The notes under the pieces were generated by a model. The model was not told where the DNA came from, made no database searches, and worked only from the letters and a program-made list of their open reading frames with translations. A stretch of 64,000 nt of DNA from an uncultured Gammaproteobacteria bacterium (GTDB lineage Bacteria; Patescibacteriota; Microgenomatia; CAZETR01; Amesbacteraceae): contig CAYHGA010000001.1 in NCBI GenBank assembly GCA_964356225.1, forward strand, positions 104,220 through 168,219, given 5' to 3'. Position 1 is the stretch's first letter, and every line of letters starts with the position of its first letter. Below are positions 14,761 through 60,368 of the stretch, one piece after another. A program made the translations under genes and the position numbers.

Positions 14761-16700
<1,940 letters not shown>

Positions 16701-16734
16701 AGATTGCTAGCAATATATACCAAATGAGGCTAAA

Positions 16735-16755
16735 GGTTGTCAAGGGGGAAGATGA
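16735..16755. repeat. direct repeat copy 1 (GTTGTCAAGRGGGAWGATGA) flanking the RelE cassette
   Basis: The sequence ggttgtcaagggggaagatga appears again at 17324-17346 as agttgtcaagagggatgatatgg. Its reverse complement carries a TTGACA -35 hexamer for the minus-strand groES promoter (TTGACA-N18-TATATA). Confidence 0.5.
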
Positions 16756-16759
16756 AAAA

Positions 16760-17032
16760 TTATTTCCGATAGACCTCGTCGTGGGTGCCAAGTTTGTAGA
16801 AATAAGCTTTTCCGGGCGGAGTCAGGGTATAAATTAAGCGGAGATTTGGACCTACGGATATGCTCCATGAATCATCTAGACTTCCTGCAAGCTTATGCAG
16901 CCTTAATCCCGGGTGCCGGGGATTTACCATAAAAATATCGAGTTGTTTATAAATTTTGTTGGCTAACTTAGCATCTCTGGCCACAAATTCTTTCAGTTTT
17001 TGCTTAACCTTTTCAGATAAAACTAATTCCAT
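16760..17032 (-). CDS. RelE/ParE-family type II toxin
   Basis: 90 aa. The C-terminal LHKLAGSLDDSWSISVGPNLRLIYTL...YFYKLGTHDEVY matches the RelE/ParE core. It is adjacent to a small upstream partner ORF. Confidence 0.5.
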   Translation of the reverse strand: MELVLSEKVKQKLKEFVARDAKLANKIYKQLDIFMVNPRHPGLRLHKLAGSLDDSWSISVGPNLRLIYTLTPPGKAYFYKLGTHDEVYRK

Positions 17033-17034
17033 TT

Positions 17035-17298
17035 TTAGAGAGAAGCGAAGAATTTCTTTAGGTCCTTTTGGGTACTGATGGTTGTGGCCTTGCCAATATT
17101 AGCCATGGCTTCTTTATAGGCCTCTTCTGTTCTAGTGGAAGCATGAAAGACAGGATATTCTTCTTTTTGGGCTTTTTCGACGATTAGGTGTTTGACTACT
17201 TGGGTTACGGGTAAACCCAGCCTGCTGGACTGACCTAGTAAGAAATCGTAGAGTTGACTGCTGAGACTCAGTCTTAACTGTATCTGGCCTGTGTTCAT
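17035..17298 (-). CDS. putative antitoxin partner of the RelE-like toxin
   Basis: 87 aa ORF lying 2 bp upstream of the toxin on the same strand. It has its own TTGACA/TACAAT-like promoter. Identified by gene order only. Confidence 0.4.
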   Translation of the reverse strand: MNTGQIQLRLSLSSQLYDFLLGQSSRLGLPVTQVVKHLIVEKAQKEEYPVFHASTRTEEAYKEAMANIGKATTISTQKDLKKFFASL

Positions 17299-17323
17299 AC
17301 TTACATTGTACTTACTTTAGCCT

Positions 17324-17346
17324 AGTTGTCAAGAGGGATGATATGG
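17324..17346. repeat. direct repeat copy 2 flanking the RelE cassette
   Basis: See copy 1. The sequence is agttgtcaagagggatgatatgg. Confidence 0.5.
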
Positions 17347-17365
17347 TTTATAAGAAAAGTTACAA

Positions 17366-17689
17366 ATGGCAAGAGAGTTTAATAGTCCCGAGGAAGCCCA
17401 ACTGGCTGCCGCGTGGGAAAAGGAATTTGAAAATGAGAAACGCAATGGGGGGGGAAATCTGTTGGTAGAGCTTTTAGTTTATTCCAGATTTTGGAGCAGA
17501 CGAGAGTTTGGTAAGAAGAGAAAAACGGCAATACTAGTTGAGCTTGTAGGCGAGCGTGGGAACGGAAGACGGTATACGCTTAAAAATGGGGAGTTACCAC
17601 GACAGTTGCAACAATTTGTTGAGTGGGAGTTAAAAACTGATGATTACGATAAGGTCGTGGAAAATTTAAGAAGAGTGGGAAAGAGATAA
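17366..17689 (+). CDS. hypothetical protein
   Basis: 107 aa basic protein with no recognisable motif. A TTGTCA-N17-TATAAG promoter-like element lies upstream. Confidence 0.3.
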   Translation: MAREFNSPEEAQLAAAWEKEFENEKRNGGGNLLVELLVYSRFWSRREFGKKRKTAILVELVGERGNGRRYTLKNGELPRQLQQFVEWELKTDDYDKVVENLRRVGKR

Positions 17690-17712
17690 AAGAGAGATTG
17701 ACCAGGAGGGAC

Positions 17713-18507
17713 TTATTGTTTGTGGGGGTGAAAGAAGGCGAAGCCGGGACCGACTTTTTCAGAGGTCATTTTGGGTTTCATATACAGATACTGTGGGACA
17801 AAAAATAAGAAATTGATTGGCCACAGTATCCAATTTTTAATTTTTAATTTTAAATTTTTAATCAAATTCAAATTTTTAATTTTTAGACTTTCCCGATATG
17901 CTACCGGCAAATATTTTTTGACCCAGGAGTTTTGAGTTAAAAATTGATTATGAATATCGGAGCGATCCCATAAGACTTTGGCTTGAAGAATTTCGTGAGC
18001 AATATACAAATTTTTAGTTTTTAATTTTAAGTTTTCAGTGTCTAGCCAGAGATTGTCGCAAATTTGGTTATTAGTTAATAGTTCATAGTTCATAGTAGAC
18101 GGATGACGCCGGATACCCAGAAGTTTTAAATAAATTACTACGAAAAAGCGGGTGAGCCAGAGAGTGTGGGGATAAGTCACTATCATTAAATCTATATCGT
18201 CGTTTTCCGGGCAATTGTTCATGGTCAAGGCACCGGTGACAAAAATTGCTGCGATAGGGGGAAATTTTTTTAGTTGCTCTCCTACTCTCTTGGCAATTAG
18301 CCATTTCTTCCTACTGAACCGCTCTCGTTGCTTACGGGTTTTCCAATTTTTAATTTTTAATTTACAATTTTTAATCAAATTCAAAATCTTAATTTTCGAA
18401 AACGAGGTGCTGTGTTGCCAATACCAGAGCTCGTCTGCGGTTAGAGGATAATCGTATTTGTCAAAATAGGAGAGGGTTTTACTTAGAGATGGGGGAAGCG
18501 AGGCCAT
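17713..18507 (-). CDS. nucleotidyltransferase-domain protein
   Basis: A GS...DIDLMIV minimal nucleotidyltransferase signature (VTGALTMNNCPENDDIDLMIV). Several TTTTTAA heptamer micro-repeats lie in frame, encoding K/I/N-rich stretches. Confidence 0.4.
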   Translation of the reverse strand: MASLPPSLSKTLSYFDKYDYPLTADELWYWQHSTSFSKIKILNLIKNCKLKIKNWKTRKQRERFSRKKWLIAKRVGEQLKKFPPIAAIFVTGALTMNNCPENDDIDLMIVTYPHTLWLTRFFVVIYLKLLGIRRHPSTMNYELLTNNQICDNLWLDTENLKLKTKNLYIAHEILQAKVLWDRSDIHNQFLTQNSWVKKYLPVAYRESLKIKNLNLIKNLKLKIKNWILWPINFLFFVPQYLYMKPKMTSEKVGPGFAFFHPHKQ

Positions 18508-19906
18508 ACTGGGATAATACCTGATTTATCCCGGTGCTTAAAGTTTTAACGGCTTCGGAGGGTGAGCGGCCCTGGTTGACTGAATTGACGGCGGTGGCAA
18601 AATGAGCCGAAAGACGGGTATTGATACCAGTGGGGCCGTCGAAGGTGTCACTGGCCAGATACCAGGAACGGGCGTATTGGGCTTGGGAGATGAAGGGGCC
18701 AGCTAATGGGTCAGAAGATAAAGATGAGGCCAGGTCTGTGCGACTGTAGGGCTCGCCGAAAGAACGCCCTGAAATTACAGCTTGCTGGTAGAGCTTGGCC
18801 AATGAATCTTTAGAGGACAAAAACTTTAAGAATTCCCAGGCGGCAGGGGCGGTGGGACTTTTTTTATTGACTCCCTCTACCCAATAACTGGCCCAAGTAA
18901 TGGGCTTTTCACCACGGGCGGGGTCAAGAGGAAGTTGAGGAACCGGATGAATTGAAAATTTAAGTTGGGGGTTGATAGCCTTGAGGTCGAAAGCCCGCCA
19001 GGAAGGGGCGAAGTAGATGGCCAGTTTACCAGTGGCGAAGCTTATGGTGGATGGGGGAAGAGTAGAATCCCAAGTGTGGTCAGAGCGGGTAAAGACGGTG
19101 TAATAAGATAGGGCATCTTCGGCTGATGAGCCGGCCGGAAGGTTGAGGTTGACGTTATTTTGGAGCATGAGGACGGCCAAAATATCCTGCCAATGGTCGA
19201 CGTTGTCAGTGGTGCCTAAGGCCGCTCCGGAAATGAGAATGCGGTCGCCGGTGGAACAGGTGCCGTCTGCAGAATCACAAACAGAAAGGGCTTTGGCGGC
19301 AGAACGTAAATCTTCCCAAGAAGCGGGGACAGACTGGCCAGACTTGGCCAATAAATCATCGTTCACAAACATAGCCAAGCCGTCAATTTCTAAAGGAACT
19401 GCCATATAATTTCCGGAGAGCCGGAGGTCGGATTTGGCTGTGGGATAAAAGGTGGACTCGAATTCGGAAGCCGAATAAACCGTGGGGGGGACGGGAGAAA
19501 GGTCGTTTTTAAACATAGGGATCCACGAATTATGAATACGGAAAATATCCGGACCTTTCGACATGCTGAGAGCTGTCTGCAGACGCTCACGGTACTCGCG
19601 GGGAGATTGAAAAACATAATTAATTTTAATTTTAGGATGGGCTGTTTGATATTCGTCGATTAAAGGTTTAATGATCGATTCTGATTCCCAAAGGCCCCAG
19701 TAAGTAAGTTCAACCTTTTGGGATTTCTTGCTCAGTTGGAGAAAAAACCTGGCTGCAAAAAGGCCGGCGACGATGAGTACTAAAATTACGATTATGGGTA
19801 TTATCTTTCCAGCAAGGGAGGATTTCTTGGGCGGGAGCGGGGAGGGGGTGGCAGGTGGAGGGACTAGTGGCTGGGAAGGAAGATCCATGAGTCCAGTATA
19901 ATACAA
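18479..19906 (-). CDS. extracellular solute-binding protein (ABC-type, family 1), membrane-anchored
   Basis: N-terminal TM anchor. The LTYWGLWESE...HPKIKINYV region is typical of sugar-binding SBPs. No adjacent permease. Confidence 0.5.
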   Translation of the reverse strand: MYYTGLMDLPSQPLVPPPATPSPLPPKKSSLAGKIIPIIVILVLIVAGLFAARFFLQLSKKSQKVELTYWGLWESESIIKPLIDEYQTAHPKIKINYVFQSPREYRERLQTALSMSKGPDIFRIHNSWIPMFKNDLSPVPPTVYSASEFESTFYPTAKSDLRLSGNYMAVPLEIDGLAMFVNDDLLAKSGQSVPASWEDLRSAAKALSVCDSADGTCSTGDRILISGAALGTTDNVDHWQDILAVLMLQNNVNLNLPAGSSAEDALSYYTVFTRSDHTWDSTLPPSTISFATGKLAIYFAPSWRAFDLKAINPQLKFSIHPVPQLPLDPARGEKPITWASYWVEGVNKKSPTAPAAWEFLKFLSSKDSLAKLYQQAVISGRSFGEPYSRTDLASSLSSDPLAGPFISQAQYARSWYLASDTFDGPTGINTRLSAHFATAVNSVNQGRSPSEAVKTLSTGINQVLSQYGLASPISK

Positions 19907-58526: not shown

Positions 58527-60368
58527 ATGGAAGTATTTATTGGCAAAATAGTGGGAAGGATTAGCCAGAAACGGTGGGCGCAGGTGTACGATTTTGCGCA
58601 CGAAACCCGGGGAAGATTAATAGTGGCGGCCAGTTTGGCGGAAAGAGAAGGAAAAACGGAGATGGAAATGGTGGAAATGGGCCGGGAATTGCTGGCCCGG
58701 ATACACGAAATATACTTTGGCAGCTTGGAAGAAGAGGCGATGAAAAATCTGAAATTGGCAATGGAGACGGTAGAGACCGAGTTTGAGGGGGCAGAAATGG
58801 CGGCGTTGGCGGTGGCGGGCGAGGCGTTATATGTGATGGTGAATGCGGGCGGGGCGTGGGCGAAGGTGGGGGGAAAAGAAGGATGGGTGATGAACCCGAA
58901 TGACAAATCACAAATGACAAATGACAAAACAAAAGTGTTGAGCAGCTGGGCGAAAGACCAGGAGACGATAGTTTTTGGGAACGGCCGGTTTTGGGAAGAG
59001 TTGCCGCTGGGTACAGTAAGAGCGGCGGTGGAAAATGGGGATATGGAGGCGGCGGTAGAAACATTGGGGGCGGTGGTGCATGGGGGAGAAAAAGGAGAAG
59101 GAGCGGCGGGAGTAATTGTAAAAATATCCAAGGTTCAAAGTTCAATGCCCAATAAAGCTCCAGAACCGGAACTGCCCAAAAAAATAAAAAGACCCTTTAA
59201 ATTGCCGGAGATTAAGCTGCCGAAGATAAAGTGGCCCAGTTTGCCAAACCGGGGGCCGGTGTATGTGGTGAGGGGGAATAAAGAATTGAACCGGAAGAGG
59301 ACAATGTGGGCGGGGATAGGGTTTTTGGTGGTGCTGGTACTTTTGGTTAGCGGTTGGATGTGGAGTGAGCGGAACAAGGCTATTAAGCAGAGTGTCCAGA
59401 ACAAGCAGATTGAGACTATCCAGGAAAAATTTAATGAGGCCAAAGCAGTAGTGACGCTGAATCCAGCCAGAAGTAGGGAATTGTTGAAAGAAGTAGAGCC
59501 GGAAGTGCAAAAATTTAAAGGGACAAAAAAAATTGACCAGAGAATGACAGCAATATTAGGAGAATGGGATGGAGTATGGAATCAGGCGATGGGAACTAAG
59601 CCGGTGAATCCGGAGTTGATAATAGACTTAGGGCTTGTGAGGGAAGGGATGACAGGAGAAAAGCTAGAGATGAGAGATGGGAAACTAGAGGTGCTGGACA
59701 CTCAAGGTGGGAGGCTAGTGGAAGTTGATGCGGAGAAGAAAAGCGCTGAAGTGGTAGCGGGGAAAGGAGATTTGGGTGAAGTCAGGCTAATGGCTACATA
59801 TCCGGGGAAAACCACGATCCTTTCGGAGAAAGGGATAATCGAATGTCAAATGTCAAATGTCAAATGTCAAATCGTTGTAAAAGCGGATGATGAGTGGGGA
59901 GAGATTGTGGATATGGGGATGTGGGGGGGAAATATTTATCTGCTGTCTAAAACGGGGATATGGAAGCTCCAGGGAGGAGAGAGCGGATATGGAACCAAAC
60001 AAGCGTGGTTAGCTAAGGCGGAAGACACAACCAGTCTAAGTCTAAGTCAAAGTATGGCGATTGATGGAAGTGTTTGGGTGACAGCCGGAGGAAAAATACT
60101 GAAATATACAAGAGGGGTGAAAGAGAATTTTGAAATAAGCGGGGTGGAGGGGATGAGCGGAGACGTGATATATACGGATGATGAGACGGAAAAATTATAT
60201 GTGTTGGATGCGGCAAATGGGCGGGTGGTGGTATTGGCTAAAACAGGAGAGTATGAGAGTCAATATATGAGTGAAGAAATGAAGAAAGCGACAGGGCTGG
60301 TGGTGGACGGGAAGGCGGGAAAGATATATTTATTGGCGGGGAGCAAGGTTTATGAAATTAATAAATGA
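58527..60368 (+). CDS. hypothetical membrane-anchored protein with C-terminal beta-rich domain
   Basis: 613 aa with a single TM (GIGFLVVLVLLVSGWMW) mid-protein. Tandem heptamer repeats (AATGACA, GTCAAAT, AGTCTA) lie in frame. Confidence 0.35.
   Translation: MEVFIGKIVGRISQKRWAQVYDFAHETRGRLIVAASLAEREGKTEMEMVEMGRELLARIHEIYFGSLEEEAMKNLKLAMETVETEFEGAEMAALAVAGEALYVMVNAGGAWAKVGGKEGWVMNPNDKSQMTNDKTKVLSSWAKDQETIVFGNGRFWEELPLGTVRAAVENGDMEAAVETLGAVVHGGEKGEGAAGVIVKISKVQSSMPNKAPEPELPKKIKRPFKLPEIKLPKIKWPSLPNRGPVYVVRGNKELNRKRTMWAGIGFLVVLVLLVSGWMWSERNKAIKQSVQNKQIETIQEKFNEAKAVVTLNPARSRELLKEVEPEVQKFKGTKKIDQRMTAILGEWDGVWNQAMGTKPVNPELIIDLGLVREGMTGEKLEMRDGKLEVLDTQGGRLVEVDAEKKSAEVVAGKGDLGEVRLMATYPGKTTILSEKGIIECQMSNVKCQIVVKADDEWGEIVDMGMWGGNIYLLSKTGIWKLQGGESGYGTKQAWLAKAEDTTSLSLSQSMAIDGSVWVTAGGKILKYTRGVKENFEISGVEGMSGDVIYTDDETEKLYVLDAANGRVVVLAKTGEYESQYMSEEMKKATGLVVDGKAGKIYLLAGSKVYEINK

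Follow-up and report, generated by a model that had tools for sequence, protein, structure and literature searches.

A toxin-antitoxin pair and a probable partial duplication of the groES promoter in an Amesbacteria-type genome

Toxin-antitoxin pair, groES-groEL and the direct repeat

The DNA considered here is a stretch of 64,000 nucleotides (the window, meaning the whole stretch) in which a predicted toxin-antitoxin (TA) pair lies directly ahead of the chaperonin genes groES and groEL and is bracketed by two copies of an 18-nt direct repeat. Identical contigs come from Hainich groundwater metagenomes, and the nearest genomes are those of Candidatus Amesbacteria (Microgenomates; candidate phyla radiation, CPR). 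The central features of the locus are listed below; L numbers here and throughout are comparison loci.

14761-16392, minus strand: groEL (543 aa), an open reading frame (ORF) with a Cpn60_TCP1 annotation on an identical contig, 95–97% identical to relatives
16374-16700, minus strand: groES (108 aa), Pfam Cpn10 with E = 4e-26, 19-nt overlap with groEL
16714-16743, minus strand: groES promoter core, -35 TTGACA (16743-16738), 18-nt spacer, -10 TATATA (16719-16714); the whole block is kept in orthologues
16736-16753, minus strand: proximal copy of the repeat (copy B), ATCTTCCCCCTTGACAAC, which is the groES promoter's own left half; the single copies of L165, L001, L004 and L075 have the same sequence
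16760-17032, minus strand: toxin, 90 aa, RelE/ParE superfamily, closest to YafQ/HP0892 by Pfam, NCBIfam and Protein Data Bank (PDB) profile matches
17035-17298, minus strand: antitoxin, 87 aa, probably ribbon-helix-helix (RelB/DinJ-like) and apparently leaderless, with 53 homologues, paired with the 90-aa toxin
17299-17332, minus strand: predicted TA promoter, -35 TTGACA (17332-17327), 16-nt spacer, -10 TACAAT (17310-17305), 6 nt, ATG
17325-17342, minus strand: repeat copy A (distal), ATCATCCCTCTTGACAAC, by comparison a groES-promoter fragment joined in register to the TA promoter, whose outer flank shares homology with that of the single L165 copy

The antitoxin gene ends 2 nt before the toxin gene starts, and the 87-aa and 90-aa proteins occur together in 13 of the 13 distinct contexts fetched. 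The toxin matched the Pfam families YafQ_toxin (E = 2e-4; 22 bits, cut-off 30), ParE (E = 0.007) and HigB (E = 0.008), and below curated cut-offs the NCBIfam families YafQ (E = 2.6e-6) and RelE_StbE (E = 6e-5; 23.5 bits vs 27.9). When compared with the PDB, a profile of six family members matched Helicobacter pylori HP0892 (E = 2e-5), YoeB (E = 4.6e-5) and HigB (E = 0.02). Membership of the superfamily is clear, with all family scores lying under the family cut-offs. The 53 homologues of the antitoxin carry no Pfam annotation, its NCBIfam match to RelB_DinJ is weak (E = 0.049), and PDB sequences gave no match. The AlphaFold2 monomer model has a low mean predicted local distance difference test (pLDDT) value of 66 and places helices at residues 13–27 and 31–44 after a disordered N-terminal stretch, from which a ribbon-helix-helix fold is probable.

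The preliminary description of this DNA had quoted two similar sequences at the ends of the TA pair, and both are present where it placed them. The repeat, which it had put at about 22 bp, is shorter: the similarity ends at both edges of 18 nt, of which 16 are identical (plus strand 16736-16753, GTTGTCAAGGGGGAAGAT, and 17325-17342, GTTGTCAAGAGGGATGAT), and the copy starts are 589 nt apart. Read on the minus strand, ATCTTCCCCCTTGACAAC stands ahead of groES and ATCATCCCTCTTGACAAC ahead of the antitoxin gene, and each copy holds a TTGACA hexamer as described, giving TTGACA-N18-TATATA for groES and TTGACA-N16-TACAAT for the TA pair. The bracketing of the pair is indeed tight, since copy B begins 6 nt past the toxin stop codon and copy A ends 26 nt short of the antitoxin ATG, and the content between the copies is the TA genes only.

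Elsewhere in the window the 18-mer has no match of 15/18 or higher, and none of 300 shuffles of the window attained 16/18 (best 15/18); the repeat is therefore not a product of chance. The CYC flank ahead of the hexamer is absent from all the other 38 TTGACA sites in the window. A chance likeness of two adjacent strong sigma-70-type promoters has to be considered, in that TTGACAA is native to both promoters and makes up 7–8 of the 16 matching bases, but this reading is very improbable. The upstream bases also match (8/10), the shuffles fall short, similar fragments recur in relatives at 18/18 (L004) and 27/30 (L171), and the flanks match those of the empty site in L165 described below, so that the comparative data effectively refute it.

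No terminal inverted repeats were found at the cassette ends, and no Rfam family, adjacent tRNA, terminator or stable RNA structure between the toxin gene and groES. No attC-like imperfect palindrome follows the toxin gene (6 nt from stop codon to repeat; fold z-score +0.97), no recombinase was seen among the called neighbour genes, and searches of viral contigs and plasmids with the cassette yielded no relatives. A possible third, degenerate copy at the 3' end of the next gene, orf264 (17690-17712), was set aside, as about 10 hits per 64 kb arise by chance when matching is this loose. A perfect 9-nt inverted repeat (aggctaaag / ctttagcct; 16727-16735 and 17315-17323) abuts each copy of the 18-mer; it reads CTTTAGCCT in the groES spacer and AGGCTAAAG in the TA spacer, where it directly follows TTGACAAC. 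Spacers of the TA family are already similar to this 9-mer (AGTCTAAAT in L060), and partly a coincidence is possible. Judged from these arms, the antitoxin could recognise the groES promoter. The window also has four tandem copies of the heptamer TTGACAT (59849-59876, minus strand).

The groES promoter in relatives and the origin of the repeat

The 18-mer corresponds to the left half of the groES promoter, a conserved segment made up of 10 nt, the -35 hexamer and the 2 nt that follow. Of the 47 groES loci examined, about 30 have the motif CYCTTGACA at the groES promoter; beyond groES promoters, about 450 kb of flanking DNA contains just two further occurrences, the second copy of L004 and a site within groEL of L040 that is probably due to chance. 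In close relatives the conserved promoter block starts exactly at ATC, with at least 8 different upstream neighbours, and TTYCCYC directly 5' of the -35 hexamer is conserved at groES promoters across Amesbacteria. A metagenome scan with the 18-mer gave 98 matching stretches, from which 80 loci were listed. Eight of these are Amesbacteria groES promoters, the other 72 have no homologue of the locus proteins and unrelated flanks and look like chance matches, and no further double copies occur among the loci listed. Two metagenome contigs (L110:2385 and L115:31) carry ATCTTCCCCCTTGACAAC-TTTAGCTTCTTGATGTATAGT, with the look of a groES-type promoter, and no groES homologue was detected downstream. 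A motif widespread upstream of many genes, which the preliminary description had named as the observation that would speak against its interpretation, was ruled out: the window has only the two copies, and in the 47 loci the motif is essentially confined to groES promoters.

The closest relative overall is L165 (GroEL 97%, GroES 95% and orf264 71% identical), which has no TA pair. Its order is orf264, orf107 (reverse), ttataaactat, a single ATCTTCCCCCTTGACAAC and groES, and the order in the window is orf107, ttataaaccat, copy A, the TA pair, tttttc, copy B and groES. The outer flanks of the two copies in the window are homologous to both flanks of the single copy in L165; MAFFT placed the upstream flank of L165 on the proximal side of the window, and the homology of the distal flank was read by eye. 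The comparison supports a filled site in the window and an empty site in L165, with an 18-bp duplication. An insertion accompanied by duplication of the groES promoter region had been proposed before, together with a comparison of orthologous groES upstream regions, and both agree with what is now found: the outer flanks are homologous, and orthologues such as L165 have a single copy of the motif.

The TA promoter of the window, TTGACA-N16-TACAAT, agrees with the consensus at 11 of 12 positions, and GTAAGTA direct repeats lie on either side of its -10 hexamer. These repeats are probably the operator of the antitoxin, through which the pair would regulate its own expression. A gap of 6 nt between the -10 hexamer and the ATG puts the predicted transcription start at the A of the ATG, and the TA mRNA thus appears to be leaderless. 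The homologues of the pair elsewhere all have TTGACAA(T/A)-N15/16-TAYAAT-N6-ATG, with AAGTA...AAGTATG repeats around the -10 hexamer. Their neighbours include BacA (L057), a helicase and SecA (L063-L066) and a radical SAM protein and MetK (L166); further homologues lie directly after orf264 (L058-L062, L168-L170) and in L010. The TCCCYC flank is found in none of the TA homologues outside groES contexts, and the sequence 5' of their -35 hexamer is not conserved. Since the homologues have a promoter of their own, the predicted promoter in the window is, on this comparison, a chimera joined in register at a shared -35: the spacer, -10 and start match the TA family, both parents share the -35, and the upstream 10 nt resemble groES (8/10). 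Only these 10 nt 5' of the -35 hexamer are foreign to the TA family. The earlier proposal that the duplication supplies the -35 hexamer of the TA operon is therefore not supported in this simple form: TA homologues in unrelated loci have their own TTGACAA-N15/16-TAYAAT-N6-ATG, to which in the window a groES-type flank appears to have been fused at the shared -35.

Fragments of the groES promoter have been found in other relatives as well, as follows.

L004: fragment of 18/18 with the boundaries seen in the window, flanking a different cassette that encodes a Cys-rich protein of about 100 aa
L001, L126: distal copy of 14/18, with the same Cys-rich gene as L004
L171-L173 (three independent NCBI assemblies): about 30 nt, 27/30, ATCTTCCCTCTTGACAACCTTTAGTCTCAC, in an islet with the order orf264-373-139-Cys-TA-groES
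L167: 31 nt, decayed (22/31), in the order orf264-orf107 (71% identical)-fragment-TA
L168 (1076-1116; also L169, L170): 41-nt groES-type promoter copy, 35/41, including a CIRCE-resembling half (controlling inverted repeat of chaperone expression), 5' of an unrelated 512-aa gene

The fragment of L171-L173 sits 5' of the TA pair's own complete promoter (TTGACAAA...TACAAT-N6-ATG), and the islet of L168 also holds a TA homologue directly after orf264. Across the loci the left edge of the duplication is constant, at the conserved-block edge ATC, and the right edge is variable. Fragment lengths of 18, 18, about 30, about 31 and 41 nt exclude a fixed target-site duplication. A transposon with a target-site duplication was ruled out by these variable lengths, by the lack of inverted repeats and by the content between the copies, which is the TA genes only.

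The reading that best accounts for these data, to which we give a probability of roughly 60%, is that part of the groES promoter was duplicated when the TA pair was inserted, the 18-bp repeat being a scar of that recombination. In this process the pair would have recombined into the promoter-proximal end of a variable gene islet, next to groES. On the upstream side, the join would have been illegitimate and mediated by microhomology at the TTGACAA common to the -35 regions of groES and the TA family; alternatively, it may have arisen by later deletion between two tandem TTGACAA boxes, from an intermediate of the type of L171 or L167. On the downstream side, an ordinary homologous exchange within the highly conserved groES-groEL would have sufficed. 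The outcome would be a TA promoter with the upstream flank and -35 of groES and with the spacer, -10 hexamer, GTAAGTA repeats and leaderless start of the TA family, and the distal copy would keep the back-to-back TTGTCA -35 hexamer for the divergent orf107. The microhomology at the junctions is TTGACAA in the window and TTG in L171, and groES-groEL, with 89–97% protein identity among relatives, is a possible homologous anchor. A variable right edge combined with a constant left edge is expected of one homologous and one illegitimate junction, and not of a transposase or a site-specific recombinase. Homology-facilitated illegitimate recombination, with joins of 3–10 bp, has been documented in naturally transformable bacteria (PMC6382021), and natural competence has been demonstrated in the CPR Saccharibacteria (PMC10633639). 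This is the most likely candidate for the mechanism in Amesbacteria, with competence in the CPR shown for Saccharibacteria only.

Several observations weigh against this explanation. The 8th base of the distal -35 box is C, as in groES, vs the usual T or A of the TA family, which makes the exact junction ambiguous. The direction of the event (gain vs loss) may be the reverse, L165 having lost the TA pair through recombination between the repeats, and the divergence of the TA sequences possibly fits an old insertion followed by many losses. Among the loci compared, no donor was found in which the TA pair immediately precedes a groES promoter that is not duplicated. The pair is present on each of the 12 contigs that encode exactly this GroES protein, and no polymorphism within the strain was seen. 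Several of the loci used for comparison are short contigs from metagenomes, such as L167 with 1.1 kb, and may be chimeric. In this connection, the TA pair and 129 nt downstream are nearly identical (98.4%) between L166:2020-2711 and L167:446-1136, in different upstream contexts; the breakpoint lies within the spacer of the TA promoter and reflects either a true recombinant or a chimeric short contig. The divergence of the TA pair between lineages is about that of orf264, and the toxins of the window and L171 are 50% identical.

A TA pair that has long resided beside groES, with a flank made groES-like by short-patch gene conversion or by selection, is a rather improbable alternative. Under selection, both promoters would have a cis element in common in this flank, for example an extended -35 recognised by a particular sigma factor or activator, and the TA pair would be co-regulated with the chaperonins. 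The conservation of TTYCCYC suggests a function for the flank, the distal copy of the window is well kept (16/18), and the pair recurs in the interval between orf264 and groES in several lineages. In L171 and L167, however, the fragment lies 5' of a complete TA promoter and cannot be its -35, and that of L167 is decaying (22/31). TA promoters elsewhere do without the flank, 8 shared bases are a very small substrate for gene conversion, and the empty site of L165 is better explained by insertion or excision.

Site-specific insertion, in which small cassettes bringing their own promoter use the left half of the groES promoter as an att or target site, is likewise judged unlikely. The repeats would then be att cores or target-site duplications, produced by a trans-acting recombinase or transposase, and excision and re-insertion would produce an integron-like order beside groES. 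Two unlike cassettes, the TA pair of the window and the Cys-rich gene of L004, do have 18-nt repeats with identical boundaries; the newest cassette is always nearest groES (L171 vs L004; window vs L165), and every duplication has the same ATC left edge. This constant edge is equally well accounted for by the functional limit of the promoter together with deletion bias, and the length of the duplication varies (18, about 30, about 31 and 41 nt). Terminal inverted repeats are absent from the cassettes, and no recombinase was found among the called genes or listed ORFs of the islets examined, whose proteins were not scanned against domain libraries. Moreover, the cassette of the window would need to start midway in its own promoter, and most islets with insertions lack a second copy. 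Doubtful, too, is a variant without a dedicated recombinase, in which small co-oriented cassettes with promoters of their own (a TA pair, a Cys-rich protein and others) repeatedly enter at the groES-proximal end of an islet in Amesbacteria, with the left half of the groES promoter as a quasi-site-specific entry point and the promoter copies as portable homology arms. If true, cassettes would excise and move between lineages, much as in an integron but without machinery of its own and centred on an essential chaperonin promoter.

CIRCE-like element and the variable islet

The preliminary description saw no obvious CIRCE operator at groES and suggested that the duplication could tie the TA pair to the groESL regulon. 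A degenerate CIRCE-like inverted repeat does lie over the groES start codon.

16684-16710, minus strand: CIRCE-like inverted repeat (degenerate), CTAGCAATC-N9-GAGTGACAA, 14/18 to TTAGCACTC-N9-GAGTGCTAA, spanning the groES ATG

The arms are only 5/9 complementary in the window. The element has the same position in relatives (14/18 in L001-L004 and L009; 12/18 in L008), the match is up to 16/18 in L013, L014 and L026, and CIRCE-like inverted repeats occur near almost all CPR groES promoters examined. In L017, L028, L032 and L036 the -35 box falls within the 9-nt spacer of the CIRCE-like element. In the window the element is 3' of the groES -10 hexamer, outside the duplicated 18 nt, which end at the -35 of the TA promoter; the spacer and -10 that follow are of the TA-family type, and the TA promoter has no CIRCE-like operator. 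The duplication thus did not put the pair under the likely HrcA operator, and heat-shock control of the pair through it is probably absent; the proposed link to the groESL regulon is not supported. A rough motif scan of the window for heat-shock genes gave no signature of dnaK, dnaJ or clpB, and neither the window nor the fetched loci contain dnaK, clpB, grpE or dnaJ genes. As no terminator follows the toxin gene, TA transcripts may run on into groESL. The 19-nt overlap of groES and groEL (16374-16392) is due to a short C-terminal extension of GroES (ACLQSN), and GroES of L002, L004 and others stops earlier (AVLS), without overlap with groEL.

Beyond the distal copy of the repeat lie the following features.

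17326-17354, plus strand: putative orf107 promoter, TTGTCA-N17-TATAAG, read from the sequence, its -35 within copy A
17366-17689, plus strand: orf107, divergent from the TA pair and groES, no Pfam or NCBIfam match
17713-18507, minus strand: orf264, conserved left border of the islet by synteny
18479-19906, minus strand: solute-binding protein (SBP), ORF

A protein search with orf107 returned 2 database proteins, one 99% identical and the other the L165 homologue (58%), and tblastn located a 71% copy on contig L167. On the opposite strand of the single 18-mer of L165, TTGTCA-N17-TATAAG stands 6 nt before the orf107 ATG, a layout that the distal copy of the window retains. Amesbacteria share with other Microgenomates the conserved order SBP, orf264, a variable stretch, groES and groEL. 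Between about 50 bp (L003, L011, L014) and 3.8 kb long, the variable stretch has ORFs that are wholly different between genomes, such as a 351-aa ORF in L001 and ORFs of 339–359 aa common to L005, L007, L012 and L075; TA-sized pairs, the small Cys-rich protein and ORFs of unassigned function also occur. From these comparisons, the interval between orf264 and groES is a hypervariable islet of gene turnover, bordered by the groES promoter. The Cys-rich gene of about 100 aa is a recurrent cassette beside groES (L004:4576-4926, L001:1767-1997, L171:2618-2950), and with TAYAAT followed by 5–7 nt to the ATG it is probably leaderless too. The protein of orf264 has only a weak match to Pol-beta nucleotidyltransferases, and an AT-rich low-complexity repeat at 17820-17900 codes for its K/N/I/L-rich stretch LKIKNLNLIKNLKLKIKNW.

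Comparison with known systems

The locus reveals no new kind of system. It offers a clean natural case, in uncultured ultrasmall bacteria, of a cassette that enters a packed genome at an essential promoter without breaking it, and it suggests a route, in which a piece of the promoter is duplicated and the promoter of the newcomer is fused to the copy. In addition, the orf264-groES interval is identified as a hotspot of gene turnover in Amesbacteria, and groES promoters of the CPR are shown to keep a CIRCE-like operator.

Like YafQ-DinJ, HP0892/HP0894 and YoeB-YefM, the pair forms one operon in which the gene for an antitoxin of about 87 aa comes first and, after a gap of 2 nt, that for a toxin of about 90 aa. 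The toxin resembles YafQ in its C-terminal GTH motif, its profile matches the structures of YafQ/HP0892, YoeB and HigB, and the repeats around the -10 hexamer would be expected for antitoxin autoregulation in a type II TA system. In the profile alignment to HP0892, the toxin of the window has Ser where HP0892 has His, a position that may correspond to His63 of YafQ. Unlike the YafQ-type systems, the pair belongs to a distant, CPR-specific branch with 53 homologues and sub-threshold scores, its mRNA is apparently leaderless, and its activity is only predicted.

The proposed insertion is comparable to homology-facilitated illegitimate recombination in Acinetobacter baylyi, Streptococcus pneumoniae and Pseudomonas stutzeri, where one long anchor is combined with one microhomology junction and the position of the junction varies. 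It differs from those transformation cases in that it is inferred from comparative sequence only and in that the junction would lie inside the promoter of the anchor itself, which leads to a partial duplication. As in the HrcA/CIRCE control of groESL known from Gram-positive bacteria and many others, a CIRCE-like repeat with a 9-nt spacer lies between the -10 hexamer and the groES start in nearly all CPR loci examined, but its version in the window and the closest relatives is degenerate and extends over the start codon, and it was not copied with the TA promoter. Integron cassettes and transposon target-site duplications are similar in that small gene units gather at a fixed, promoter-bearing site with direct repeats on the flanks; here, in contrast, there is no attC-like palindrome, no integrase or transposase among the called neighbours and no inverted terminal repeat, and the repeat length is variable. 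Overall, the locus is made up of known kinds, a RelE/YafQ-type TA pair and what we read as a recombination scar at the border of an islet, the product of an ordinary and well-documented type of rearrangement.

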